From Eledone cirrhosa (lineage: Eukaryota): DNA of 64,000 nt. Positions 1,790 to 50,663 of this stretch are shown here, one piece after another. The DNA lies in contig OZ024746.1 in NCBI GenBank assembly GCA_964016885.1, positions 82,026,001 through 82,090,000 on the forward strand, in the 5' to 3' direction. A model generated the notes under the pieces. The model had not been told where the DNA came from. It made no database searches and saw only the letters and a program-made list of their open reading frames with translations. The position numbers and the translations under genes were made by a program. Every line of letters starts with the position of its first letter. Within the stretch, counting starts at the first letter, position 1.

Positions 1790-3990
1790 TATAAGTTGTA
1801 ACGATGAAAGAATGGTATTTAACTAGGGTATTGGTACGCGATGGGGCCCACCCACAGCCCCAGCGGACAGAATGGAGAAGGCGTTTCCCCGGAGGACGGC
1901 AAGGGGAGACGCGCTGGAAAAGCCACTCCAACTCGCGGGACACACCTGCAGCTGGCCAGCTGAGCGCCTATGGTGGGGCCGAGGACACCAGAAGTTTCCA
2001 CTGCCAGGGGAACGACCGCAAACCTGTCGGAGAGCGACCAGTATTTGAGGAGTTTGGCCCCCTCAGCTCGACGTGTAGCAGAACCTGGGTCAGTCAAAGA
2101 CTGCACCAGATTGCGGCTGCAGAAAGTGTTGGTGCAAGTGGCATCCCAGACGAGGGGTTTGCCACCGCGGAACGGGAAGATGGTCATGTCATCTGACCTT
2201 TTGCTATCCCCTCGATCCAGCTCCACCGGCTCGAGCTGGGAAGGGAAGCCTGCAGCGTCCAAGCCATGCTTAATGACCTCGTTGAGGGCAGTATGGCGTG
2301 GAATGCGGCCGGCACTGTGGCGATAGGAAAGCGGGTGGAGGCCGAAAGAGTCCACGGTGGAACCGCAGCGACATTGGTGTGGCTGGCAGATCCGGAGGCC
2401 GAGCCTCAGGGAAACGCTGATTCGCAGGCTATGGTTGTCTAGCTGCGTGCCAGTGGAGAAGGAGGGCAGAGCATGGAGCTAGGCACCACTGTGGGGTTTG
2501 GAGGCCGCACGAAAACAAGCAAGGCGGTGCTGGTCGAGCTGGCGCGTGAGCCTGTCTGAGGCCAGGATGCACTGGATGGCATCCCAAGTGCGTTGGGGGA
2601 ACTTGATGTCAACAGGGGAAGAAGGAGGAGGGACGTCTACTGGGCTAAGTCCCAGCCGGTTTCACGTCTCACAGGCGGCCTCACGTTCTCTGAACACAGA
2701 GGGTTCTGTTGTGTTTTGAAGAACCCTGCTGACGAGGATGCGGCACGAGGTTACCGACGAAAGATACGCCGGAAAAGCTAGTGAGATCGGGGACCGGAGG
2801 CCTAGGCCGCCATACCTGACCGGTAAAGTGACCTGTTGCCACCCTATGTCGTCAAACTTGACGTTGCATATCCCCTCGGCTGCGGCTCGGATACAAGTAT
2901 CGAGGTCAGCGAGGAGAGATGTCTGGGTGTAGCATGGAGCGCTGCGGAGTGTATAGAGGAGCTTCGGCATGGCGAAGCAGTTCCTCAGCAGAAAGAGAGC
3001 TGGGTGGCCGTCAATCAAGCCCAGTCGGCTCGTGAGAGTCTGGAGCTGTTGAAGCCTGGACTTGATGGTGGAGCGGATGGCCGGCGGGTGGACCGGTGAC
3101 CCGAGGATGAGGACATCCTCTTTGGGGGTCACATGAACCTGGCGGAGATTGGACCGCCCGTCCAAGACGGAAGCTGCAAAACTCGCAGCATCGAGGCTGA
3201 CGTTCACCACCTCCGACTTGGCCGAGTTGACCTGGAGGCCGATTCTCGCCAGGGCAGGAATCACCGATTGAAGGTCTTGGCAGACCGTCCGTACAGGCCT
3301 ACCCAACGTAGCATCATCCAGATACCAAACGTTGAGAGGGGCCGTGATACTCCGGGCGATGTGGTCAATACCAAGGGCGAACAGGAGGGGTCCCAAAGGG
3401 TCACCCTGTTGGACCCCAGTAGCCGAGGGTATGACCGTATCAGCAGCTAGGAGCATGCTCGGGGCTCTATATGACAGGTAGGCCAGCGGGTAGGCAGAGG
3501 GGGCTCGGCTGAGGCTGGTCTCGAGCAGATGATCCCGGCGTAAAGGCATTCCTCATGTCAAGCTTGACAATGAGATGCCTGGACTCCCTGGATGCCGGTA
3601 CCGATGGGCAGCTGCTGAAGAACTGCCTGATTGCATGAGAGGCTCCCTCACAGCCACCGGACACGCCGACACCCAGTTGCACCGGACTAAACTCCTCACC
3701 CAGTTCGTGTGTGACGGACTTGCAGATCACCTTGGCAGCCAGCCTCCGGAAGACATTGCCCACAGCAATGGGGCGTATGCCACCCTCTTTCTTCCTGAGA
3801 GCGGTGAGGCTGGCCGAAAAAAAGAGGCCTCGGGCGTAAGGGTCGAGAGCACCATGAATGAGCCTATTGGTGAGCGCCACAATTGCACTCAGAAGGCGGC
3901 GCCCGGCCTCAGCGGAGAGGGGGGGATGTCAACTCCTTGAGGTGGCCTGGTCGGGGACCAACAACACCTCCGCAGCTGCTAGCTGGGAAG
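1790..3990 (-). mobile_element. 5'-truncated, degenerate CRE-like non-LTR retrotransposon (RT, zinc knuckle, restriction-like endonuclease)
   Basis: Fragmented ORFs 3467-3880 (GGIRPIAVGNVFRRLAAK), 2662-3549 (GVQQGDPLGPLLF, WYLDD, GGLGL) and 1819-2355 (RIPRH, KRSDD in place of RPD, LVWDATC, AEGAKLLKY, PLAVETSG); frameshifts and stops between them. Confidence 0.85.
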
Positions 3991-13590: not shown

Positions 13591-16500
13591 TTACAGATAT
13601 ATACTCAGAGTCGGCCCATTCACACGGGCCATTCTTGCTTCTCTCACCCATCTTTCAACAAAATGCTGGGAAGAGAGCACTTCCTTCTCTACTCTGATTT
13701 TCCTTTTCAAATGAAATTTGAAAAAGTCAATCAGAGCATCACCGAAGAGGTAAGTGCTCGTCTTCAGCCCTTTCAAACGTGTCCACCATACTATCTCTTT
13801 CGCCATGGCCACCAGACAGATAAAAACTGCCTGCCCTTCCCGGCTAAAGGAGGAGGGCGGGGCAATCCTCACGATAGACTCAGATGATAGCTGGATCCGT
13901 CCTAAACGCGACAGCAGGTGTTCGACATAAACCCACAAGTCAGCAATTTTCGGACACTGGACGAGTGCGTGCAGGACGGTTTCGTCGCCCTGCGCGCATC
14001 TCGGACATGCCCGGCTGACGGCACCTCCATGCCTGTAGAGTTTATCCCGAACTGGCAAGGCTCCTCGGTAGCACTGCCAGGCCAGAGATTTCTGGAAGTT
14101 GTCCATAGGCCCCGGCCCGAAAGTTCTTCCGAAGAGATTGGCTAGTTGATTTTCGTCGACGCCTAGAGTTTCCCCAAGTACGTCGTCGCTCTTCCCCTCC
14201 ACTAATCCTCTATAGAACGCCGAGGTGGAGTTTCCACCGATCACATTGCCCGATTGGTCGAGGGCTGTGAGCGCCTGAAGACATTCCAGTCTCCAGGCGC
14301 TCCCTCTCGGTCTTCGCTTGACCCAGGACTGCAGCTCCGTCAAGGAAACGAGCTGGGGAAAAACGCGTCTAGCAAACGGCGACCACACCTGATCACCGTC
14401 GAGGAAGAGGTGGAGATGTCGTAGCCTGAGCGCGTGCCTGCGCATCATCAGCCACGGCATGCCCAGCCCTCCACGTAGCGGGTGTTGACAACAGATGGAC
14501 CGCCTGACCATCGGAGCACGTCCCTTCCACAAAAAGCGAAAGAGCAAACGCTCCAGCGCAGTCAGGCGAGGCTTAGGACAAGGTACGACGGTTAGGCGGT
14601 AGCAGATGACAGACGCGATGTACGCGTTAGCCACCTCCGCTCGACCTTTCAGGGATAGCTTCCTCTCCGCCCATTTCTGGGTGAGAGAAGCCACCCTGCT
14701 CGTCACCTCGTCCCAGTTTTTGTCCGTCTGGAGGTCCGGACCGAACCAGACCCCTAGCAATTTAACCGGTCCGTCCGTCCAGCGCCCGACGACGCTGTTG
14801 GACGGCATGGACCTGCCTCTCCAGGTGCCGAGCTGCAGGCCCACTGACTTTTCCTGGTTGATCATTGCTCCTGTCACCGCTTCGTATTCTCTTAGTGTAG
14901 TGCCGATCGCCTCGATGTGTTTGGCGTTCGACACCACTACGGTGACATCGTCCGCATATGCTGACACGGATCTTCCGCATCCTAGTTCGCGCGGGACTCC
15001 CCTCAACGTCTCCAGTTTGTGCAGTAATGGCTCGAGAGTCAATACGTACAAGAGGGACGAGAGGGGACATCCTTGGCGGACCGAGCGCATGATGTTGAAC
15101 GGTTCCGACAGGTGACCGTTCACTCTCACCACAGAGCAGATGTCGCTGTGCATGGCAGCGATCCAGCCTCTGAAGACGGGCCCAAAGCCAGCCGCCCTCA
15201 GGACTGCCGCTAGGTAACGATGGTCGACCCTATCGAAAGCTTTCGACTGATCTAAATTGATCAAGGACCCACCCGTGCCAGGTTCCCTAGCTACCCTCTC
15301 TACGATGTATCGCATGAGGTGGAGGTTGTCGTGGATGGATCTGTCGGGAATGGCGCATGTCTGCGCCTCTCCCACCAGACCACCAACGACAAGCGCCAAC
15401 CTCTTTGCTAGCACCTTGGCCAAAATCTTAAACTCTGTGTTTAGCAGAGTTATGGGCCGGAAATTGTCTATGTTATCCCCCTTGTTCGGATCCTTTCTCA
15501 GCAGTGCCACCGCTCCTCGGCTCACAGAACTGGGAATTCTCCCGTTCTGTTGCCAGTTGCAGTAGACGTCCGCCAAGAGGCCTCCGAACAAGTCTGGCAT
15601 CTGTACGTAAAGTTCATAGGGCAGACCATCCAAACCAGGCGATTTACCCCTTGTGCAGCCAGTCATTGCCTCCCGTACTTCAGCGGCTGTTATCGGCTTT
15701 TCGCAACACCTCGCCTCAGTGGCCGAGAGCCGCGGCAGCCCGTCGAGGTAGACACTAAAGTCCATCCCTCTACCCGGCCCCCCGCTGCCCCCGAACAGCT
15801 GAGCGAAGTGTCGCTGAAAAGCTTCACACATTTGCCCGGGATCGAGTAGCATGCGCCCGTCGTGGTCCACCAAAGACCGGATCGTGGCTTTGTTGCCACG
15901 ACGCGCCTCCGCCACTCGGGCCCATTGAACGGCTTTCGTCCCCTCGTGTCTGAGAGCACGCACCCTAGCTCTGACAACGCAGCCTTCGTGCTTTGCATTG
16001 AAGAATTGGTCAAGGGCCAATTTCGCCGCAAGCACGTCGGTCGCAATGCCTTTGCTAAGCGCCTCGTCTAATTTTCTAACTAGTTCTCCCTCTGCTCTAT
16101 TTTTCTCTATTGCTAAAGCCTTACTAAACCTAATCGATTCTATTCTAATCGCTCTTTTCAGAGCAAACCACCACTTGTTGTTGACGATGGCCCCCGTCAA
16201 CGCCCGCTTAACTAGTTCGCTAATCCGGTCTCTGTAGGCCTTGCGCGCTGGTAAGGACGCGTTTAGCTTCCAGTAGCCGGGTCCTCGTCTATGAAGCCTA
16301 TCTAAGTCAAGCACACAGGTCACGAATTTGTGGTCCGTGTAGCTGACTATCTTGAATTGTGGACAGCCTATGCTAGACCTATCTATTTCCCTACAAAATA
16401 CTCTATCTAGATATGATCTGGATGACCCTATGCGGTTTGTCCAAGTCCACATTGGCACATTCGGGAAATCCAATCGGTACCTGTCAGACAGTTCAAAACG

Positions 16501-17010
16501 CCTGAGCAGGTTGGTGAGGCTCTTGCACCCTCCACCCCTATCCGCTAATCCCACACAGTCCCAGCGTGCATCTAAGATCCCGTTCCAGTCGCCCACTAAC
16601 ACTAAAGAGCGGGACGTTCCAAGAAAGGTCTCCAGACGCCGGAAGAAATCAGGCCGCCCTGCTCCTGTCGGGGCATAGACGGCCACTAGCCTGAAAGCTT
16701 GCCCGTCTCCGCTGGTCACGTCCAGCACCACCAGCTTACCCTCTGGGTCCAGGAAGATGGCCCGTATGGCGAGATCCAAACCTCTCCGAAAAAGCACAGC
16801 AACTCCTCCACCCGATCCAGGACGGCTGGGAGATGCGTACACATCGTAGCCGCCGAAGATCGGTGCGAAGGCCCGTGCTTCGGAGATTCTGGTCTCGCTG
16901 ATGGCCACTACATCTATGTTTAGTGACCTGAGGTCGTTGAGCAGGTGACCCTGCTTCCATGACGACCCCAAGCCACGCGCATTTATGCTGCCTATTCTGA
17001 GTGAGGTCAT
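13591..17010 (-). CDS. LINE ORF2: AP endonuclease, reverse transcriptase, CCHC zinc domain (1139 aa)
   Basis: GSINARGL, ISETR, VYAP, VGDWN, LDRVF, TDH; FRPITLLN, DQSKAFDRV, VRQGCPLS, YADD; CPRC...HALVQC. Confidence 0.95.
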   Translation of the reverse strand: MTSLRIGSINARGLGSSWKQGHLLNDLRSLNIDVVAISETRISEARAFAPIFGGYDVYASPSRPGSGGGVAVLFRRGLDLAIRAIFLDPEGKLVVLDVTSGDGQAFRLVAVYAPTGAGRPDFFRRLETFLGTSRSLVLVGDWNGILDARWDCVGLADRGGGCKSLTNLLRRFELSDRYRLDFPNVPMWTWTNRIGSSRSYLDRVFCREIDRSSIGCPQFKIVSYTDHKFVTCVLDLDRLHRRGPGYWKLNASLPARKAYRDRISELVKRALTGAIVNNKWWFALKRAIRIESIRFSKALAIEKNRAEGELVRKLDEALSKGIATDVLAAKLALDQFFNAKHEGCVVRARVRALRHEGTKAVQWARVAEARRGNKATIRSLVDHDGRMLLDPGQMCEAFQRHFAQLFGGSGGPGRGMDFSVYLDGLPRLSATEARCCEKPITAAEVREAMTGCTRGKSPGLDGLPYELYVQMPDLFGGLLADVYCNWQQNGRIPSSVSRGAVALLRKDPNKGDNIDNFRPITLLNTEFKILAKVLAKRLALVVGGLVGEAQTCAIPDRSIHDNLHLMRYIVERVAREPGTGGSLINLDQSKAFDRVDHRYLAAVLRAAGFGPVFRGWIAAMHSDICSVVRVNGHLSEPFNIMRSVRQGCPLSSLLYVLTLEPLLHKLETLRGVPRELGCGRSVSAYADDVTVVVSNAKHIEAIGTTLREYEAVTGAMINQEKSVGLQLGTWRGRSMPSNSVVGRWTDGPVKLLGVWFGPDLQTDKNWDEVTSRVASLTQKWAERKLSLKGRAEVANAYIASVICYRLTVVPCPKPRLTALERLLFRFLWKGRAPMVRRSICCQHPLRGGLGMPWLMMRRHALRLRHLHLFLDGDQVWSPFARRVFPQLVSLTELQSWVKRRPRGSAWRLECLQALTALDQSGNVIGGNSTSAFYRGLVEGKSDDVLGETLGVDENQLANLFGRTFGPGPMDNFQKSLAWQCYRGALPVRDKLYRHGGAVSRACPRCAQGDETVLHALVQCPKIADLWVYVEHLLSRLGRIQLSSESIVRIAPPSSFSREGQAVFICLVAMAKEIVWWTRLKGLKTSTYLFGDALIDFFKFHLKRKIRVEKEVLSSQHFVERWVREARMARVNGPTLSIYL

Positions 17011-17045
17011 GTTTAAAATAGAGTGGAAAAGATGGGAAAGACCAC

Positions 17046-19145
17046 TTACCGTACTTTTGGTAGAGGAGGGATGGTTTTTACATCCCTTTTCACTTGATCG
17101 TCTGGTGAAGGGACCGTTGAATCGTCCCTTCGGCTGGTCGTCGGCTCTTCTAAGAGAATGTCTGAATATACTCTTCGATTAATGGTTCCTCCTAGGTCCC
17201 TGAAATCACCAACAGCGTTGGGGAATTTCGTTTTAATGTTTGTGTATTGTTTCTGTGCTATTTTTAGCAGTCTTATGTTAGTTGGCGTTTTGATTGGTGC
17301 TGGTATTATGTAGTCCTGTTGTGAAATGTCTGTGTGTTCAATTATGTAAGTCATTAGTTTCTTGTTGTGTGTGTTTATTGCCGTGCATTTGTTTTTCTGG
17401 GGGTGGGGTGTGGTTCTGCTATTTTCTTGTCGTTGTTGCTGGGTGTGTGTGTTTTGTTGTTGTGTTTGCGATGTTGGTGCTTGTGGTGGTGGTGTTGAAG
17501 GTGTTGTTGGCGGTGGGGTTGTCGCCGGTGGTGATGGTGGTGCTGGTGTGGGTGGTGATGGTGTTGGTGGTGTTGCTGCTGTGGGTCTCTTTGCAGTAGA
17601 CTTTACCCTTTTCTCATTTCTTTCCTCCCTTTTCAAAGGCGACGATGCGCTGCTTCTGCGTTTGTGCCTTCTTGAGACCTTTTGCCATCCCTCTCCCACC
17701 TCACACTCCATGTCTGATTCTGTAAGGTCGGGGAGGGGTACCAGCTCCACTCTTTCACTTGTTGTTGTTGGTGATGTTTGCACTGGAGTCTCTGTTGCAG
17801 CTGCATTTGGTATTGCTGTTGTTGTTGTTAATATTTCCACTGCTGCTGCTGTCTTTGATTTCCGTGGAGTGGGTATGGGTGCCACGGACCTATCGTTCCT
17901 GGTTGCCGCTTGTCCTGTTGCTGGTAGCCGTGGAACCGGATTCGGGAGGAGGGGGGTTTTCTCCTTTCTCATGGTCTTCTCGTTGCAGAAGGCCCTGAGG
18001 TGAGTCTTCGATCCACAGCGAAAGCATTTCGGGCGTTTGCCCTCAACACTTATGGGCAGTTGAGTGCCGTTATCGAAGTCTATCACATCCGGGATAGCTT
18101 CGATGCACTCCTGGTTGGTTTGGATTAGCATCTCAATGGAGGAGCCGACCCAATCTTCTCTTACTTTTTTCTGTACTTGCAGTACAGTTGTTTTGTCCTC
18201 GATTCCGACGAGGACAGACGCGGCCAGCCAAGAAGGGGTCATTCCGGGGGGGACGTGGGTCAGTTTGACCCTCACAATTTTTTGCCCGCAGTAGGAGGGC
18301 ACCAACACCATTTCCTCGCTCCTTAGGGTCACTACTGATTGGGCCTTTGCCTCCTGGGGTGTGGCAAAAAGTACGTCTACGGTGGCGTATTTTTTGCCTC
18401 GGGTGATGTGCGTTTTCCTCTGCCACACAGACCCCAAGGCTTTTTGTATTTGGGCCTCTGTGGCTCTTTCCACCCTACGGGATTTTGTACTTACTGTACG
18501 GTACGTGACCGTACAGTGCTCTTGGGTTTCGAAAAAATTTTTCGCTGCCTTGCAGATTGCTCGGTGTCCGTTCTTTGTCACCATCTTCTTCGCTTCCTCT
18601 AATTCCTCATTTGTTATGAGGATTGTTTCCAGGTTTTTCGCAATACCTGCAAATGAGATTGGTTTTTCTCTGCTGTTGTTGTTGTCGTCAGAGCTGCTGG
18701 TACTTTTGTTGTTGCTGCAGGTACTACGACTACTGCCTCCGCCGCTGTTGCTGTGGTTGTTGTTGGTGTTGCTGCTGCTAATGCTGTTGTTGTTTATGCT
18801 GCTGGTGATGCTGTTGCGGCTGCTACTGTTGTTTTCATTGTCACTGTTGCTGTTGTTATTACGGCTGCTACTGCTATTATTCCTGACGTCAGACGAATGA
18901 ACTGGGTTTTCGTATTTCCCGCACACCTGTTTCGTCGCTGTCGTCGTCGTCGTGGAGAAACCTTGCACGCTTTGCACGAGACTTTTCTTTTCTTTCGTCG
19001 CTTGCGAAAGAGAAGGTAGGGAGAGAGACACATTTAAAGAAGGGAGGGAGAGAGACAATCTTCTCTCTCCTGTAGTGATGATTGAGGAAGAAGAAGACGG
19101 AATGAGTGGGAGTGACGTATGAAATTTTTTTTTTTTGGTAGCCAT
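17046..19145 (-). CDS. LINE ORF1 (gag-like, CCHC zinc knuckle)
   Basis: First ATG at 19145 within the 17046-19178 ORF; CFRCGSKTHLRAFC knuckle; S/N-rich and P/T-rich low-complexity segments; 35-nt spacer before ORF2. Confidence 0.88.
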   Translation of the reverse strand: MATKKKKFHTSLPLIPSSSSSIITTGERRLSLSLPSLNVSLSLPSLSQATKEKKSLVQSVQGFSTTTTTATKQVCGKYENPVHSSDVRNNSSSSRNNNSNSDNENNSSSRNSITSSINNNSISSSNTNNNHSNSGGGSSRSTCSNNKSTSSSDDNNNSREKPISFAGIAKNLETILITNEELEEAKKMVTKNGHRAICKAAKNFFETQEHCTVTYRTVSTKSRRVERATEAQIQKALGSVWQRKTHITRGKKYATVDVLFATPQEAKAQSVVTLRSEEMVLVPSYCGQKIVRVKLTHVPPGMTPSWLAASVLVGIEDKTTVLQVQKKVREDWVGSSIEMLIQTNQECIEAIPDVIDFDNGTQLPISVEGKRPKCFRCGSKTHLRAFCNEKTMRKEKTPLLPNPVPRLPATGQAATRNDRSVAPIPTPRKSKTAAAVEILTTTTAIPNAAATETPVQTSPTTTSERVELVPLPDLTESDMECEVGEGWQKVSRRHKRRSSASSPLKREERNEKRVKSTAKRPTAATPPTPSPPTPAPPSPPATTPPPTTPSTPPPQAPTSQTQQQNTHTQQQRQENSRTTPHPQKNKCTAINTHNKKLMTYIIEHTDISQQDYIIPAPIKTPTNIRLLKIAQKQYTNIKTKFPNAVGDFRDLGGTINRRVYSDILLEEPTTSRRDDSTVPSPDDQVKRDVKTIPPLPKVR

Positions 19146-19358
19146 GTTTTTTTGTTTAAAATGAAATTTTGGGTACAAAACCCCAATAACTGATTATTTA
19201 ACCCCGAAGGGCCAAATAACGGACAGAAAGACCCCTCTCACGAGGAGGAGGGTGTCTTTATCAACAATTTGGTTCAAGTTTTAAACAATTTACAATTGTT
19301 TTAACGGTTAAAAATTACTATACCTTACAGAGCCGAGCCTCCGTCAACCATGGCATTC

Positions 19359-26544: not shown

Positions 26545-27200
26545 GATTATTATTTTTAATCCTGCACTGACCCTTTTTATTTTAAATCCGCACTGATCAT
26601 TAGTGTTTTTAACACGGGAATTAAATTTACTATTTTTAATCCGAAACTGATCATTTGTTTTCAATCCACCTCTGAAACTTATTAATTTTAATCCGGCAGT
26701 GACACTTATTATTTTTAATTCGGCTCTTATCCTTATTAATTTTAATCCGTCACTAATCCCTACTGTTTTTAAACCGGCACTGACCCCTATTATTTTTAAT
26801 CCGTCACTGATCCTTATCATTTTTAATCCGTCACTGATCCTTATTATTTTTAATCCGGCACCTATCCTTATAAATTTTAAAACGGCGCTGACCCTTATTA
26901 TTTTTAATGCGGTGGATTGGCAGTATCGGTAGATGGTCGGACGCCATGCTTTGACGCAAAGCGTTACGGTCCTTTCCATTCTGAGTTCAAATCCCGCCGA
27001 GGTTTACTTTGCCTTTCATCCTTATGGGGTCGATAAAATAAAGTACCAGTAATGCACTGGGTAATTGCTGGCCTTGTGCCAAAAGTAGAAACAATTATTT
27101 TTAATCCGGCACTTACCCTTATTATTTTTAATCCGGCACTTATTCATTTGTGTTTTTAATCTGGCACCGACCTTCATTATTTTTAATCCGGCACTAATTT
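26545..27200. repeat. ~27-bp minisatellite interrupted by a SINE
   Basis: Repeated ttattatttttaatccggcactgaccc. Confidence 0.85.
26909..27095 (+). mobile_element. tRNA-derived SINE (main family)
   Basis: Full head, core and tail; attatttttaat on both sides. Confidence 0.85.
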
Positions 27201-27574
27201 TGGGTTAATATTACCTATAGGAAGTAATTTATTTAATTTCAATAAGTGTCAGTACTATATTAATTGATAAGAGTTTAACACCTGTAAGCGGTCATGCGAC
27301 GGTAGTTATTCGATGGTTTTTCTAAAAAGGATGAGTGTTATGAGTTTACGAGTGATTTATATCCCGAACCGGGACAAAATATGATCAATGATGAATAGTA
27401 CAAGATATAGGGAATCTTTGTTAAATAGAATACTTTTAAGTTCAATCGATGAAATAAGCAATACATCGATATGACTAAGAAACTTTTGAAGGCTGGAAGG
27501 AAAGTCTCGGTTGTATTGTAGGATTTGGGGGTTGGATTGGGTTTGATAAATCGGTATTGAATGTTATGTCCTAC

Positions 27575-28598
27575 TAGCTTCAAAGTGCCATATTTCCCAC
27601 ACTATCTCCCCATTACCAAAGGGGTCATCTTTGCTCCATATTTCCATACTGAAGCTCTCCAGCCTAGTGTGCCACCCTAGTTCTGCAGTGCCATAGTGCG
27701 GCACCCTAACTCCGAAGTGCCGTATTTTACCCCCCTATCTCCCCATTGCCATAATGTGATATCCTAACCACCCAGTTCTATAGTGTGCCACCCTAGCTCC
27801 GCAGTGCCATAGTGGGGCACCCTAGCTCTGAAGTGCTGTATTTTACATTTCCATACTGCGACATCCTATTTCCATACTGTGTCACTCAAACTTCCCAGTG
27901 CCATAGTGTACCACTCTAGCTCCGCAGTGCCATAGTGCGGCACCCTAGCTTCAAAGTGCCATATTTTTCACACTATCTTCCCATTGCCATAGGAGGTCAC
28001 CCTAGCTCCATATTTCCATACTGTGTCACTGAAGCACCCAAGTGTGTCACCTTAGCTCCGTAGTGTCATAGTGCGACACCCTAGCTCTGAAGTGCTGTAT
28101 TTACCACCCTATCTCCCCATTGCCATACTGCGACATCCTAACCACCCAGTTCCATAGTGTGCCACCCTATCTCCGCAGTGCCATTGTGCGACACCCTAAC
28201 TTCGAGGTGCCATATTTCACCACCCTATCTCCCCATGGCCATATTTTACCATCCTATCTTGCCAGTGCCCTACTGTCCCACCCTAGCACCCTAGTTCCAT
28301 AGTGTGCCACCCTAGCTTTGCAGTGCCATAATGCGGCACCTTAGCTTCAAATGCCTTATTTTACCACCCTATCTCCCCATTGCAATACTGCGCCACCCTA
28401 GCTCCATATGTCCAAACTGAGTCACTCAAGTTTCCAAGTGCCATAGTTTGACACCCTAACTCCACAGTGCCATACTGTGTCACCATAGCTCCACAGCGCC
28501 TTAGTGCGGCACCTTATTTACGAAGTGCCGTATTTTACCACCCTATCTCCCCATTGCCATATTTTACCATCCTATGTTCCCAGTGCCATACTGTCCCT
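27575..28598. repeat. Complex minisatellite of ~29-bp related units
   Basis: Recurring gtgccatagtg(t/c)g(c/g)caccctagctc and atttcaccaccctatctccccattgccat. Confidence 0.85.
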
Positions 28599-29091: not shown

Positions 29092-29283
29092 GTAATTGTT
29101 TCTACTATTGGCACAAGGCCAGCAAATACCCAGTACATTACTGGTACTTTATTTTATCGACCCCGTAAGGATGAAAGGCAAAGTTAACCTCGGCGGGATT
29201 TGAACTCAGAATGGCAAGGGCCGTAACTCTATGCGTCAAAGCATGGTGTCCGACCCTCTACCGATACTGCCAATTCACCGCCC
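29092..29283 (-). mobile_element. tRNA-derived SINE (main family)
   Basis: Reverse complement of the consensus, full length. Confidence 0.85.
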
Positions 29284-30946
29284 TGTATTCATTCCCACTA
29301 GTAATACCATGAAAAAATGTTCCACACATAAAAAGTTCTCTGCTGAATAAACAAATGAGCAGGGATCCTGTTTTGCTCATGGCAAATTTTATGTAGGGTA
29401 CTCAAGGCCATGAAATCTCCTAAATCTCTTCCTTTATAGCCCTACTGGTAAAACCGGAAACATTATTCATCCAGAGGAGCTTTCATGACAGCGTTCGAAC
29501 TCCTAAAGCTCAGTTGGTTACAAATCGAATGTCATAAAACTGAGATTCATTACAGTTATTAATGTCACTTATTTTATTGTTTCAAGTATTGCTCTTAGCC
29601 TGTTCCAATATTTGAGTTGGTGAATTACTTTTGGGTATTTTGTTATGACAATAATTTTATTTTCATTAATGGTTTAACCACCAAATCTAATTTGAAATAT
29701 CCTTTTTCAAAAATGAAACGTTTCATTTTAAAAAATAGACCTCGGTCGGTTTCAACGACGAATGTTCCACTTTTGGGATCAATGGAACGGCTGCTCGTAA
29801 AATTAAAGTGCCAGGAAGTGCACCTTTAATGTAATTCTCTGGGAGATTCAGTATGACACAGTGTGACAAGGTTAGCCTTTTGAATTACAAGAACAATCCA
29901 TGCCATGGCTTTCCATGTGGTCTCTGTTTACCCAGTTTCACTCACAGGGCATTGGTCGAACGAGACTATGTTAAATGACACTTGTCCAAGTGCGATTAAA
30001 CCCGGGAACTAATGACTGCAAAATTAACTCCCTATATTCATTTACAGTTTTAAATTTAAACTGTTTTATACTCACTTCACATAGCCCCGAACATTAATAT
30101 ACTAACATTGAGTAGCTATTGCCATTCCAATTGCTTCACACACTGGAATACTGTCTATAACTCTCTACTACGTATCAATTCGCTATATAATATCTACAAG
30201 GTTGAATTATGAAATATACTATCTATATTGAGTGCGTATATGTAGCCCAATGCAAAAGACACAGGGATGCGGTAAACGTTTCTGAAAAAAAAATGTTCTC
30301 ACATGGACACTAATATTTAAAGAGAAACTCAATACTGTTTTATTACCCGAATATGCTTTCATTAAGAACAATAATTCCGGTGTACATATAAATTCTTCTC
30401 GGTCCTGTTATTCCGGGAGGGTTGTGGAGACAATCCTCAGACGCACCATTCAGAGGGTCCTATCAAAAGTAACCTCCAATTAATCCGGCTAGATACCCAA
30501 ACGAGACGAACCAAGCTCATGGATGTTATTCAACTATCTTGATCCTGGTCTACTATGTCCAGTGGTTTTAACCACATGTCCGTTTTTGTAATATTGACCT
30601 AGCTGCACCCTCTCTGTAAAATGAATATATTTGCACACATACCTATAAAAATATGGAAAACATTTTAGGTATGTTTTCTGCATAAAAAAAACATTTATGT
30701 GTGAGGTAACATATTTAACGCAATTAAAGAAAACCATCATTGAAGTTAACGATGTTTCACTTCAGTGATTAGACATTATTTGGGATTCACTGTATATACT
30801 GTTAGAGAAGAGATAAATCAAGATTACTTAAATGAAATTATCTGGCATGGTTAAATATATATATATATATATATATATAGAAGACGTAAAATAAGAAAAT
30901 CCTATAAAAAGTTGTTTTTTTTAAATGTTAACTTACTTAAATTTTC

Positions 30947-31028
30947 ACTCCAACTAATTAGTTTCTGCAATGGGATAAAGACAGTTACGTAATCTAACTG
31001 TCGAGAATTCATTGCGTCATCAGGGAGT
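30947..31028 (-). ncRNA. Type I hammerhead ribozyme (inverted copy)
   Basis: Reverse complement of 31572-31653. Confidence 0.7.
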
Positions 31029-31571
31029 CTATTCTCAGCTAAGTCTCCAGGCAATGCGCGGACACTGGGGGCTCATATAAAAATAATAATAATTCGGTAG
31101 ATGGAACAGCTAGCGGGGACTGAATTCCATGCACTGAAATCCTCACTGCCTCTAGTCAAATGGCCGATTCTAAAGAATCAATCACATGACACAGAGGCTA
31201 GTCAGTAGGAATGGGATGGTAACCTGTGTATTTGCTGGCATTAGCGTACATCTGTGCGCTTATGTTAGTTGATATATTAAATTATCTATATTTATCTCCA
31301 AATCACTGATTTGTCGAGCAAACCTGCCAAAACCACTTCTAAATTTTTTTTGGGGGTGTTGGTAGGCGTCTGTCATCTTACCATCCCATTCCTACTGACT
31401 AGCCTCTGTGTCACGTGATTGATTCTTTAGAATCGGCCATTTGACTAGAGGCAGTGAGGATTTCAGTGCATGGAATTCAGTCCCCGCTAGCTGTTCCATC
31501 TACCGAATTATTATTATTTTTATATGAGCCCCCAGTGTCCGCGCATTGCCTGGAGACTTAGCTGAGAATAG

Positions 31572-31653
31572 ACTCCCTGATGACGCAATGAATTCTCGAC
31601 AGTTAGATTACGTAACTGTCTTTATCCCATTGCAGAAACTAATTAGTTGGAGT
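31572..31653 (+). ncRNA. Type I hammerhead ribozyme with an extended stem II
   Basis: ACTCC, CTGATGA (31577), cGCAATG...GACAGTTA/TAACTGTC...CATTGCa, GAAA (31635), CTAATTAG, TT^, GGAGT. Confidence 0.75.
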
Positions 31654-31840
31654 GAAAATTTAAGTAAGTTAACATTTTTTTTTAAAAACTTTTTTTAAAG
31701 GATTTTCTTATTTTACGTCTTCTATATTATTGTTCTGCATCCTCCTGCATTGAACCACCTAGGTACTATGACATAACCTGTGTATTTGCTGGCATTAGCG
31801 TACATTTGTGCGCTTATGTTAGTTGATATATTAAATTATC

Positions 31841-31929
<89 letters not shown>

Positions 31930-32587: not shown

Positions 32588-32776
32588 AATTTTTTCTACT
32601 TTTGGCACAAGGCCAGTAATTATCCCAGTGCATTACTGGTACTTCATTTTATCTAATCCGTAAGGATGAAAGGCAAAGTTAACCTCGGCGGGATTTGGAC
32701 TCAGACCGTAAAGGGATATAACTCTATGCTGGAAAGCATGGCGTCCGACCCTCCACTGATACTGGCATTCCACCGC
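32588..32776 (-). mobile_element. tRNA-derived SINE (main family)
   Basis: Full length; an older + strand copy lies at ~32310-32505. Confidence 0.85.
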
Positions 32777-32829
32777 ATTTGATTCTTTATAATTAAACCT
32801 TAATAAACACATATGTGCGCATGAAATTA

Positions 32830-33506: not shown

Positions 33507-33697
33507 TGGCGGTGGATTGGCAGTATCGGTAGAGGGTTGGACGCCATGCTTTCCAGCATAGTTACGTCCCTTTACAATCTGAGTTCAAATCCCGCCGAGG
33601 TTGACTTTGCCTTTCATCCTTACGGAGTCGATAAAATAAAGTACCAGTAATGCACTGGGTAATTGCTGGCCTTGTGCCAAAAAGTAGAAACAATTAT
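33507..33697 (+). mobile_element. tRNA-derived SINE (main family)
   Basis: Near-consensus copy; an older - strand copy lies at ~34255-34467. Confidence 0.85.
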
Positions 33698-46206: not shown

Positions 46207-49200
46207 CTAACAGCGCTGCGATCGAATGTGGCTTTTTAGCCCAGCCAATGATCTAAAATGTCTTGCACAGAGTCGGCAACCAAAACATTCACTGGGAATA
46301 GTCGGCTGTGGTTGGAGTTCGTGTACTCTTGCATGTCGCTTGAGCCCTCCTGCTGATTTACATTCTCTACCACATGTTTGGCAAGCATGATGAGTAGCAT
46401 CTCCAACAGCAGCCTGGTAGTCAACCACTGGTCTTACTTTATGACTGCGAAGATGACTTTCGAGTCCAGCTTTGCTTAGGCACAGACGCTGCATGTCACC
46501 ACCATAGGAGGACCCTCACCGTCTGGAAGTGCAACAGCAATGCCCTTCCTCACATCCCGCTTTACTTTCTCGTATGTGATTCGAGATGTCTCAAAGGCAA
46601 CTTTTCCCTCATATACAGTCTTTCTCCATTTATTACGATCAGCAGCAATATTTTCCCATGTATCAGCAGAGATGTTAGCGTCTTTCAGAGAGGCTTTCAA
46701 GGAATCCTTATACCTCTTTTTTGGTTTATGTGGCGGTCGTTTTACTTTAACCAACTCTCCATAAAAGAGTTGTTTTGGTATTCTAGAATCCTTCATCCTG
46801 GCAAGGTGACCACTCCAACGGAGTCGTTGCTTAAGCACAAGAGCTTCTATACTGTCACACATAGAGCTTTCCAAAATCAAGACATCGCTGATGTGGTCCC
46901 TCCAGTGAACGCCATGGATCCGTCTGAGACACATCTGATAGAAACGCTCCAATTGCTTAAGGTGGTGTCGATATGTGACCCAGGTCTCGCAGGCATAAAG
47001 AAGACAAGAGAGCACACATGCCCTGTACACCTTTACCTTTGTCCTCCTGCATATGTCTCGCCGACCCCAGAGTCGCCTTTCTAGCTTTCCGAAAGCATCA
47101 CTTGCTTTCCTAATCCTAAGTGAGATTTCACTGTCAAGGTTGCTGTATCGATTGACAGTGCTTCCCAGGTAGACAAACTGATCAACCACTCCAAGTCATT
47201 TACCATACACATAGATATTTGGTTTAGTTTACTGCTTACCAGGGGCAGGTTGGTACATGACGACGGGTTTCTTGAGACTGACAGTCAATCCTAGGGCAGT
47301 GCAAGCGTCAGAAAATGCATTCAAAATGTGCTGCATATCACTCTCTGTGTGCGCTACAAGATCGCAATCATCTGCATACAAGAGGTCTCTTATGATTGAT
47401 GTAAATACTTTTGTCTTTGCAGCAAAGCGCCTGATGTTAAATATGCTGCCTGACGTTCGATATCGGATGTAAACTCCATGCTCGCAATTCCTGAATGCAA
47501 TACAGAAAACCATTGCAAAGTATATGGCAAACAGGGTCGGTACTGGAATATCCCCCTGTTTCACTCCATTTTTTACTGAGATAGGCTCCGACATGTTACC
47601 TCCGACATTAACCCAAGCCTTCATGTCGTCATGGAAAGACCTAACTAAAGCAAGGAACTTATCTGGGCAACCAAGTTTCTGGAGAACCTTCCATAATGCA
47701 TCTCTGTTAACAGTATCGAAAGCTTTTGTCAGATCGACAAAAACCTGATACAGATCCAAGCCTTGTTCCATGCACTTCTCCTGGAGCTGTCTAGCTGAGA
47801 AGATCATATCAGTAGTGCCGCGTCCAGCACGAAAACCAGATTGACTTTCAGGAAGGACACAATCTGCAATGTGTGTCAGCAGACGGTCCAGAAGCACCCT
47901 ACATAAAACTTTCCCTACGACAGAAAGCAATGATATACCTCTGTAGTTCCCACAATCATTCCTGTTACCCTTCCCTTGTACAAGACCACCATTACTGCAT
48001 CTCTCCAGTCCTCAGGTACGGATTCATTAGCCCATATCCTGCCAAACAAAGAGTGAAGATGTTGCAGGAGTCTCTCACCACCATATTGTAGGAGCTCAGC
48101 ATGTATGCCAACCATACCTGGAGATCTTCCACTGTTCAGCTTCGAAATAGCCGCTGCAACCTTCACAAGCGTCGGAGGTTCTGCGAGAGCTACTTTCACA
48201 GGACTTTCTGGAATGAGATTAAGGAAATCTTCACTGACGACAGACGGCTGATTCAAAAGATCATCAAAGTGCTCTCGCCACCTTCATAGAATTCCTTGTG
48301 AGTCACGAAGAAGTTCTTTGCCATCCTTGCTGCGAAGCGGTGTCACCAGAGAAGAAGACGGTCCATAAACCTCACGCAAGAGACTGTACAATAGCTTTGT
48401 GTTATTGGAATCTGACGCAGTTTGTATCTCACCAGCCTTCTCACTCCACCACTGATCCTTCATCTGAGAAAGACTCCGCCTAACACGTGATTTTACATCC
48501 TTGAGTTCCTCATGCAACGTACTCCTCTCCTGTGGTTTTGCCGTCAAGTAGCGTGACAGAGCACGCCTCTTATCAGCCAACAAGTCTTCTATATGTACAT
48601 CATTCTCATTAAACCAGTCCTGATGTTTTCTCTGCACCAATCCCAGAACACGTCTGCCTACATCATAAACCGACTTTTTAAGGGTCGGCCAATCATCACC
48701 AAGATCTGCAGCCTGCATCTCTTCTTCCAATGTCCTCTTCACATTTTTATCCTTAAGACGAGTAGCATTCAATCTTTTGGGCAGGGTAACACCAGGAGCC
48801 CGGATTTTACGTTTGGTGATTAGATTCACTTTTGCGCGTACCAGGCGGTAGTCCGTCCAGCACTCAGCTCCACGAAGAGCACGAACACACTGCACATCCT
48901 GTCTGTCACGCATCCTGACTAGGACATAGTCCAAAAGATGCCATTCCTTAGATGCAGGATGCATCCATGTGGTCTTGAATTTGTTCTTTTGTTGGAACAT
49001 GGTGTTGGTAACACACAGATCCAGCTCCTCACACATCTGCAGCAGGAGCATACCATTGTTGTTACAATTTCTCACCCCATGCCTTCCGATTACATTCCAT
49101 GTGTTAAAATCCCTACCCACTCTAGCATTAAAGTCACCAAGCACGATGACTTTGTCTGCCTGAGGGATATTTCTTAAAACACCTTTCAAAGCATGGTAAA

Positions 49201-49650
49201 ATGACACTTTTTCTTCATCGACAGAATTCATAGTTGGAGCATACACACTCACCAGGGTCGCATATCTTCCTTTGTCCAGCGGAATTCTCATGGACATAAG
49301 ACGCTCACTAATCCCTACTGGGAATTCTTCTAATTTATTCACAAGTACAGTCTTAACAGCAAATCCTACCCCAGCCTCTCTTCTGGTTCCTTCATCTCTT
49401 CCTTTCCAGAAGAATGTATATTCTCCACAAAATTCTGTAAGATGACCATCTCCAGCTAACCTCGTCTCAGATAAAGCCACGATGTCAAGATCGTAACGTC
49501 GAAGCTCCTTTGCAACAAGAGCGGTCCTTCGTTCAGGATGCTCCAAGGAATCCCTGTCAAGCAGCGTCCGTACGTTCCAGCAGCCAAGACTAAATGCCTT
49601 GTTTGGCTTTATTACAATGGCACGATGACGAGCGGCCCCAGGCTGTGATA
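46207..49650 (-). pseudogene. Near full-length RTE-clade LINE ORF, frameshifted (APE, RT, three C2H2 fingers)
   Basis: GCWNVRTL, LSETR, VYAPT, GDFNARVG, DLTKAFDTV, GVKQGD, YADD, LRWSGH; split over ORFs 48284-49789, 47915-48256, 47229-47930, 46476-47189 and 46207-46494. Confidence 0.9.
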
Positions 49651-50663
49651 ACCTGGGGCCCTTGCCCTTATTGCCAATTATCTTTTTTGTTCCAGAACCT
49701 AAATTGCCAATTATCTCTTTTTTATTGTTCTGGAACATCATTGAATTTAAAAAAAAAAAAATAAAAAAAAGTAATAATAATAGTAACAATAATAATAATA
49801 ATAATAGTACACTATTAATAATTATTAATGCACTCGTGCAATGCCTGTGCGTGACGAATATTTTTAAAGTGAGGAAAGACTGTGCACTGAGCCAATCCCA
49901 CTCTCAGTGGCTATAACCCAAAGTAGCTATAACCCGAAAAGAAGAAAAAATCAACATCATCGGTAACTACTGAGCCGCAGGTTTTATGTCGGAGTTAATC
50001 CAGTTTCCTGAGATGCCTTCTCCTAGAAGAATGCATACATACATACATACATACATACATACATACATACATACATACATACATACATACATACATACAT
50101 ACATACATACATACATACATACATCTGTATATCTTCTTTTAGTATACAACACCAGAATTATGATAGGTTACAATTGGTGTAATAAATTAGATCTCTTCGG
50201 AGAACATATTTCAGAATATAAGATGAACGAGTTTATACTGTAAAGATAATCTTATATCTGTATGTCAGTGTTTAGATGACTAATATAAATTATTTAGAAG
50301 CTACATATAGAAGATATGTAGCCTATGAATGTATATATAAATCAAGGAAACAAAAAACGGACAAACAAGAGGTTGCAATAACGTAAATTTATATTAATTT
50401 CACGCTATATATAAAACATGAAGTATAAGTCAAGGGGTTAAAATTAACTTCCTTTATTCATAGTCGCTGTTATGCAACATCTATGACCTCATCAGACAAC
50501 TAGAATTTGAACAGAAAAAAAAACAGAAAAACAGAAAGATGAAATAAACCTTACTTCTGTTGTTTTGATTCATTGATACGCTCCGGACTGAAGGAACATC
50601 GTAACAGTATTGAGTACTTTAACCGATGAATTGCCTGTAACTATAGTTATACACATATCTACC

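Follow-up and report, generated by a model that had tools for sequence, protein, structure and literature searches.

Animal retrozymes without long terminal repeats (LTRs) carry one type I hammerhead ribozyme per short, GC-poor tandem unit free of open reading frames (ORFs), are present thousands of times, singly, as oligomers or in long arrays, and coexist with Penelope-like elements (PLEs) (Cervera and de la Pena, 2020, PMC7229834; Li, Clavereau and Pollet, 2026, bioRxiv 10.64898/2026.07.22.740005). An element of this kind lies at 30875-31845 of a 64,000-nt stretch of the Eledone cirrhosa genome (contig OZ024746.1, positions 82,026,001 to 82,090,000), here called the window, to which coordinates refer unless a locus is named. 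It is a member of an animal non-LTR retrozyme family and shows each testable feature of the class. We consider it quite likely that it is a young, protein-free hammerhead tandem repeat, probably inserted by a borrowed Penelope-type enzyme that cut both target strands and made one complementary DNA (cDNA) from each of two fixed sites.

The units of described retrozymes measure 170-400 nt (PMC7229834) and 51-972 bp (bioRxiv 10.64898/2026.07.22.740005), as against 520-570 nt here; retrozyme circles are abundant in coral, mussel and axolotl (PMC7229834), retrozymes are already known from a mollusc, and their origin from PLEs was argued in 2026 (bioRxiv 10.64898/2026.07.22.740005). Unlike the described animal retrozymes, the present family has a very long, two-part stem II and no homologue found among the pseudo-LTRs (pLTRs) of PLEs; its fixed double 3' ends, tail, inverted arms and (TA)n targeting are not described in the accessible portions of those two reports. 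Endonuclease-bearing (EN+), Neptune-type PLEs, in turn, share with it 5' truncation, partial tandems, an inverted 5' copy, a tail on one end only, a hammerhead and microsatellite targets (Craig et al., 2021, PMC8557442; Arkhipova et al., 2013, PMC3846280), whereas our element has no ORF, a tail about three times the published 30-40 bp, arms that run several times round the unit, and junctions that are not palindromic. The Poseidon element PAc (Frangieh et al., 2024, PMC11167929) resembles it in several respects: two internal reverse transcriptase (RT) starts bound the tail, the first of them, in PAc, about 80-90 nt downstream of where the ribozyme cuts; both target strands are extended; targets are AT-rich; and RNA ends have left no mark at the cut. 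MRC1 and other Chlamys PLEs of Chlamydomonas are likewise non-autonomous and form multicopy head-to-tail insertions; Chlamys elements, however, mostly lack canonical hammerheads, and the 3' ends of the non-autonomous ones are generally like those of their autonomous partners, a similarity not found here (PMC8557442).

Two arms and two fixed 3' ends

The locus reads, in order, (AT)n, inverted arm, TAA overlap, main arm, (AT)n and (GT)n. The main arm (31220-31845, plus strand, 626 nt) comprises the last 72 nt of one unit (31220-31291, unit positions 483-554) followed by a full 554-nt unit, M (31292-31845, plus strand, numbered M1-M554), and the resulting direct repeat, 31220-31291 and 31774-31845, has a spacing of exactly 554 with one mismatch in 72 nt. 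The inverted arm (30875-31222, minus strand) covers M87-436 and matches 31378-31727 over 348-350 nt at 96.9% identity. Both arms' 5' ends meet in the TAA microhomology at 31220-31222. The left target microsatellite, (AT)n at 30855-30879, overlaps the ...CTATAT end of the inverted arm, and the right one, (AT)n followed by (GT)n, spans 31846-31927; with (TA)n on both flanks, a target-site duplication (TSD) is obscured. No ORF is present, the longest stop-to-stop stretch in six frames being 56 amino acids, so that the ORF of an autonomous PLE, with its telomerase-like RT and GIY-YIG endonuclease, is absent from the element. A first-pass annotation, made from the letters of the window, had already described the 554-bp repeat, the inverted copy of about 348 bp joined through TAA and the lack of an ORF, all of which stand. 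It had also called the arms nearly identical; more exactly, they differ by 1 nt outside a hypervariable A/T-run and in about 10 columns within it.

Across the family, the 3' ends of the arms fall at two sites, which are candidate RT start sites. Site A (31723-31727, plus strand, ...CGTCTTCTATAT; end at M436, 31727) lies 79 nt downstream of the predicted ribozyme cut, and site B (...AATTATCTATAT, plus strand) is at M550-554 (31841-31845). They are about 110-118 nt apart, neither is at the ribozyme cut, and (TA)n or (CT)n comes next. Between them lies the 'tail', in the window 118 nt with two predicted hairpins (31728-31845, plus strand); the inverted arm of the window bears the tail-less end at site A.

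The two sites are combined in a regular way. To avoid score bias, we sampled by position, taking 59 loci that represent 94 of the first 100 motif positions on contig C1. Their 36 two-armed junctions included 31 that paired A with B, none that paired A with A or B with B, and 5 with truncated, chimeric or odd ends, an outcome with P ~1e-9 if each arm chose freely. A score-selected set of 46 loci gave 19 A+B pairs among 22, the other 3 being unresolved, and a variant-motif set gave 10 of 13 by profile coordinates only, the remainder running to or near the locus edge. Even among 44 seemingly single arms, 6 hide a tiny second arm, in each case of the opposite class. A reading in which the arms end at any TATA microhomology was rejected, as a unit has four TATA sites, two of which seldom serve as ends.

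The 5' ends behave quite differently: they are scattered round the unit and pile up nowhere. In the set used for this count, 5 of 169 arms had been dropped (low score or reference edge) and L148 and L182 excluded as near-duplicates of L147; run-off at the ribozyme cut is not enriched in it, with 3 of 164 5' ends within -3 to +2 where 1.8 are expected. Arm lengths have medians of 424 nt (A) and 421 nt (B), 34 of 91 arms are longer than one unit, and the sampled maximum is 1,488 nt. Since 5' ends scatter and arm lengths vary, the 72-bp terminal redundancy pointed out in the annotation is no defining feature and marks only where the B arm of this copy stopped. The junctions of young copies are scattered too, and not palindromic; 25 of 28 show an overlap of 0-7 nt or an insert of 1-7 nt. 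Thus the family displays what is expected of PLE-type insertion: two fixed 3' ends with a tail on one of them, 5' truncation, an inverted copy and a microsatellite target.

As each arm's 3' end abuts target DNA, each arm reads as first-strand cDNA made from one side of the break. Most likely, then, the inverted arm stems from the other target strand, which primed a second cDNA. The first-pass annotation had instead proposed that a single RT went slightly more than one lap round a circle and then switched strands; as a variant, RNA or cDNA might prime itself on an antisense template, which has been proposed for head-to-head PLE structures (PMC3846280). The near-identity of the arms, their common alleles and the microhomology at the junction are what such a route would produce, and we nonetheless regard it as improbable. 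A fold-back copy would end anywhere, or at the site of the first arm, whereas every resolved second arm has its end at the other fixed site, directly by (TA)n, as the inverted arm of the window does at its equivalent of 31727. Some main arms moreover end at A, are shorter than one unit and have no tail, yet their inverted arm carries a tail of 110-118 nt (L194, L200, L201), and the junctions are scattered rather than palindromic. The A+B rule largely refutes the strand-switch model.

While primed separately, the two arms would derive from one source. They share subfamily alleles, with 4.8% discordance compared with 33.8% between loci, and their A/T-run types differ by a median of 4 edits, compared with 13 for other loci with the same stem II, although these pairs are not independent. 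Comparison of the A/T-run distance between same-arm and opposite-arm units gave no difference.

The hammerhead and its family

The ribozyme of the main arm (31572-31653, plus strand) is a type I hammerhead with a long two-part stem II, a C·A mismatch at its base, a palindromic stem III and a GUU triplet. In stem I, ACTCC (31572-76) pairs with GGAGT (31649-53), and the CTGATGA core follows; C31584 and A31634 flank stem II, GCAATG/CATTGC, which is topped by an 8-bp upper stem; GAA, the stem III palindrome ACTAATTAGT and the GTT triplet complete the motif, with the predicted cut at 31648/31649 (M357/358). The inverted arm holds its mirror at 30947-31028 (minus strand; coordinates mirrored from the arm alignment). 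As Rfam yields no match at the gathering threshold within the window, the ribozyme call rests on motif and covariation. For the latter, 20 copies at less than 93% identity from 50 stem II types were taken together with the window. In these 21 copies, 91.7% of stem cells are paired and 39 cells have changed on both sides, values that 0 of 500 shuffles reach, while slid controls give 35-45% pairing. Two further measures, based on counts of pairs or pair types, stay within the range of the shuffles (147/500 and 473/500). The information lies in stems I and II alone, since the pattern used to select copies fixed stem III and the core. In the window copy, the extended stem II and palindromic stem III are as noted in the first pass.

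Every subfamily seen has the GUU triplet, a C ahead of stem II and an A behind it, and a variant pattern without that A has 148 genome matches, compared with 56 for a control and 9,169 for the pattern with A; 30 variant-pattern loci, when inspected, were point mutants of the family or chance matches. The C·A mismatch and the GUU triplet are therefore family-wide traits, not decay. A mismatch at the base of helix II also occurs in axolotl HHR_Amex2, which has U·U there yet cleaves (PMC7229834), and other hammerheads in the Eledone genome have U·U or A·A at this place. Typical PLE hammerheads combine a long helix II with a small, palindromic helix III and have one base more before 10.1; they cleave poorly, probably as dimers (PMC4209133). 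The other hammerhead families seen here (L100:6199-6700, L108:7567-8600, L117:541, L103:184), some of them tandem with periods of 459 and about 500 nt, are likely further retrozymes.

The unit M has a GC content of 37.9%, below the 45% that serves as a retrozyme criterion, and folds with z -5.9 relative to shuffles. It has no layout of LTR, primer-binding site (PBS) and polypurine tract (PPT). Plant LTR retrozymes are defined by a type III hammerhead in true LTRs, PBS and PPT, and a 4-bp TSD; here, the hammerhead is of type I and lies outside the direct repeat. With a single hammerhead on each strand, the window copy would release no unit-length RNA, so that 'complete monomer', as it had been called, is misleading, and as a source of circles the copy has probably reached a dead end. 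Some family loci, unlike the window copy, hold two or more hammerheads in succession. Contigs of four sequencing sets are deep over the repeat, none of them spanning the window locus.

Two variable places within the unit deserve mention. The A/T-run (31655-31715, plus strand) differs between almost all units, even inside young insertions, and varies less within one insertion than between insertions; this suggests RT slippage on each pass, with homopolymer assembly errors as an alternative. A non-CpG C/T site in GAATTC at 31478 (unit position 187) varies within 7 of 24 insertions, in several subfamilies, and stands at 96:59 in the large array described below; recurrent mutation, editing and an RT error hot spot are candidate readings.

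The genome (3.0 Gb, AT-rich and microsatellite-rich) holds the family in large numbers. A DNA search returned 2,010 candidates, of which 36 were scored, and many of the scored matches are head-to-tail arrays with a period near 554. An exact 22-mer from the 3' half of the ribozyme occurs 9,169 times genome-wide and its reversed control not at all; for the young subfamily, a diagnostic 24-mer has 164 occurrences. Units measure about 520-570 nt in the older subfamilies, which are 72-95% alike. The first reading of the element as retrozyme-like agrees with this picture, and so does its view of the insertion as recent: the main arm is 99.2% identical to two array units, which marks the window copy as young. 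Of its expectation that tandem or permuted copies would be found, the tandem part came true, with up to four head-to-tail units at dispersed loci and far more in arrays, and free permutation did not, as only 5' ends scatter and 3' ends are fixed. At another locus (L269-L271, G000:C1:399,757,905-399,758,003), a normal arm is immediately preceded by at least three short stutter pieces from the 3' half of the ribozyme, with (TA)n after every piece.

The largest array, at G000:C2:312,577,955-312,666,754 (L063-L072), spans 88.8 kb with about 160 units, among which the commonest hammerhead form is found in 94 of 129 parsed. Its higher-order repeats of 1,111 bp and about 7 kb and a recurring deletion of unit positions 138-252 need amplification at the DNA level. 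Could the whole family be satellite DNA, spread by unequal crossover or extrachromosomal circles without reverse transcription? We hold this to be highly unlikely. Dispersed copies have fixed 3' ends, ragged 5' ends, strand polarity and a structurally conserved ribozyme, and the array itself starts with an inverted arm and ends at M554 (site B) in (TA)n. It has grown by DNA-level repeats while keeping its insertion anatomy; DNA-level spread explains only array growth and is excluded for dispersed copies by the end rule.

Template and mobilizing enzyme

Since RT passes the cut site freely, the template must be either a religated circle or an uncut multimer. We lean moderately towards a circle, which is favoured by the lack of a run-off point, the spread of several allele classes compared with a single one in the big array, compensatory change in the ribozyme, and the plentiful circles of the coral, mussel and axolotl retrozymes mentioned above. 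With the same enzyme and the same two-strand priming, the template could also be an uncut linear multimer transcribed from arrays, the hammerhead being slow or idle and no circle being needed, a possibility that we rate as less likely than not. PAc inserts in vitro without need of hammerhead cleavage, uncut RNA being the dominant substrate (PMC11167929), and 8 of 9 Xenopus retrozyme dimers remained uncleaved in vitro (bioRxiv 10.64898/2026.07.22.740005). An array of about 160 units exists that could serve as a source, 5' ends show no run-off at the cut, as counted above, and seven variants are common to only some units of an insertion. However, compensatory changes keep the ribozyme intact across subfamilies that are only 72-95% alike, the array has a single allele class although several classes spread, and no pile-up of 5' ends marks a transcript start, unlike in a short derivative of the resident family N2, which runs off at one fixed 5' point as the retrozyme never does. 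The 88.8-kb array as direct multimeric template of the window copy is not supported, as the arms do not match the alternating 1,111-bp pattern of the closest units.

Which enzyme could have been borrowed? Autonomous PLEs coexist with the retrozyme family in this genome. We examined 80 GIY-YIG loci, drawn from 150 of 10,597 candidate places, and found at least eight families with a C-terminal GIY-YIG domain, six of them with the C-x4-C-x2-C linker reported for Neptune (PMC8557442). Five autonomous families have two fixed ends about 30-65 nt apart at (TA)n, and among 13 autonomous two-armed insertions 9 combine a long with a short end, 3 are unresolved and 1 apparently uses the same site twice. 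In the short N2 derivative, a second arm is seen in 33 of 39 loci and ends at the short site in 33 of 33, the loci having been selected on the long arm. This derivative (L279-L307, for example G000:C1:193,159,592-193,159,952) is palindromic and resembles a miniature inverted-repeat transposable element (MITE), with long and short arm joined at a fixed point between (TA)n flanks. N1 and N2 each include young copies, about 97% alike at the protein level. N1 is a Neptune-like family (L098:1775-5062 and some 78 similar places) with many long open frames, often of 796 amino acids, and a microsatellite-rich 3' region; a protein search with N1 found only N1-like copies, 79-100% identical.

Two chimeric loci may bear on the choice. 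At L011:794-1261, one arm opens with 216 nt of an N2 end, at the long site of that family, and passes without a gap into retrozyme sequence, and the other arm ends at retrozyme site A; at L167:1304-1851, an older retrozyme copy is joined directly to an N1 end. These are possible template switches that would name the mobilizing enzyme, and we treat them as hints only: a later insertion into shared (TA)n plus a deletion would look the same, and six other PLE ends lie 22-90 nt from retrozyme 3' ends. L011 may record a single complex that used two templates, RNA of the autonomous family for one strand and retrozyme RNA for the second. The window unit shows a weak likeness to the N1 end (0/200 shuffles) that three older units do not share, and local similarity of four units to seven PLE ends is not consistent. 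Strong profile matches at L105 and L095 were set aside as apparently separate insertions, the former beyond a long (TA)n and the latter on the opposite strand.

Alternatively, the copies could themselves be the 5'-truncated ends (solo pLTRs) of an undiscovered autonomous Penelope element rather than a self-standing family. Partial tandem, inverted 5' copy, tail, hammerhead and (TA)n bias are indeed the anatomy of a PLE end (PMC8557442), and 24 of 57 Xenopus retrozyme families match transposable elements in Repbase, nearly all of them PLEs (bioRxiv 10.64898/2026.07.22.740005). Yet long arms run upstream into another unit, up to four in dispersed copies and about 160 in the array, 55 single-arm flanks share no ORF-bearing upstream sequence at a common join, and PLE-coding matches in 150 scanned family loci lie at scattered places and strands. 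Copies that extend into an RT ORF are not seen in the family loci scanned. We judge the solo pLTR explanation unlikely.

Several observations weigh against insertion by a borrowed Penelope-type enzyme priming once from each fixed site. PAc showed no strand difference in start site in vitro, and its priming was not homologous to the cut DNA (PMC11167929), whereas both retrozyme sites end in TATAT like the target. The tail of 110-118 nt compares with about 30-65 nt in the resident autonomous families and with 30-40 bp in published PLEs (PMC8557442). Comparison of the family profile with the pLTRs of the 80 GIY-YIG loci, from at least eight families, gave no homology, and the mobilizing partner was not found among them. 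In L114, an autonomous insertion of family N5, the two arms seem to have roughly one end site in common, and the inverted arm of the 88.8-kb array stops at unit position 216, without microsatellite. The alleles common to both arms could be mimicked by later conversion between them; a register test for one shared template divided into 7, 4 and 2 ties (n=13); and private variants were common to all units in 4 of 130 cases, none of these 4 extending across both arms.

On balance, we still favour two-strand priming by a borrowed enzyme, and the following course of events could account for the copies. Transcripts of tandem arrays would be cleaved by their hammerheads, which may act as dimers paired through the palindromic stem III; the cut RNAs would be ligated to circles of about 554 nt, or else uncut multimers would serve. 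A Neptune-type RT-endonuclease, probably a dimer as predicted for PAc (PMC11167929), would bind around the tail and nick both strands of a (TA)n tract. Of the two 3'-OH groups, one would prime a cDNA at site A and one at site B, templated by a single RNA or by RNAs of common origin, and each RT would run for a few hundred to about 2,000 nt, through the ribozyme site. Short microhomology (TAA in the window) or a few extra bases would then link the cDNA ends, so that the insertion is head to head and only one of its arms bears the tail. In vitro, PAc provides a precedent, with both target strands nicked and extended, two internal RNA start sites delimiting the tail, and ribozyme cleavage dispensable (PMC11167929), but it shows no strand bias, while the arms here always use different sites and start sites that resemble the target TATAT.

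Neighbouring repeats and significance

The element shares the window with repeats of other kinds. On the minus strand, an apparently intact long interspersed nuclear element (LINE) at 13591-19193 has two ORFs, a 715-amino-acid ORF1-like one and a 1,195-amino-acid one for endonuclease and RT; from its features we take it to be L1/Tx1-like. A broken LINE at 46476-49903 (minus strand) is presumably RTE/CR1-like, and a broken RT-bearing element of another type lies at 1819-3928 (minus strand). Minisatellite arrays with 27-nt and 29-nt units occupy 26547-28594, and short dispersed repeats in both orientations, similar to short interspersed nuclear elements (SINEs), are found at 29108-29293, 32624-32788 and 33560-33682.

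What does the family add to the systems described so far? The class of the element is known; it stands out by an unusually clean mechanistic footprint and the long tail. Our searches of the open-access literature, supplements aside, turned up no description of a retrozyme that combines a PLE tail with inverted arms, nor a tally of the one-of-each pairing or an explanation of PLE insertions by twin priming. The word 'ribozyme' does not occur in the accessible text of an octopus repeat-annotation paper (PMC13282606). Two open questions are touched. The first is the origin of PLE tails and head-to-head insertions, for which self-priming on antisense template and extension of both target strands have been considered; the second is whether retrozymes are moved by PLE enzymes, as so far argued from co-occurrence and pLTR homology. 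The family separates the models, as its arms start at different fixed sites, its junctions are scattered and non-palindromic, and the resident Neptune-like elements follow the same rule. Tentatively, we suggest that PLE retrotransposition may be an obligately asymmetric two-strand reaction, in which one complex opens (TA)n, makes one cDNA per tail end from the same circular RNA and links the two cDNAs head to head, and that some 60 resolved insertions without exception, in a family whose arms can stop at any point round the unit, may be the footprint of retrozyme circles mobilized by PLEs. Beyond this, the family provides a small RNA substrate with mapped candidate start sites, together with young candidate partner proteins, for an in vitro assay that already exists.

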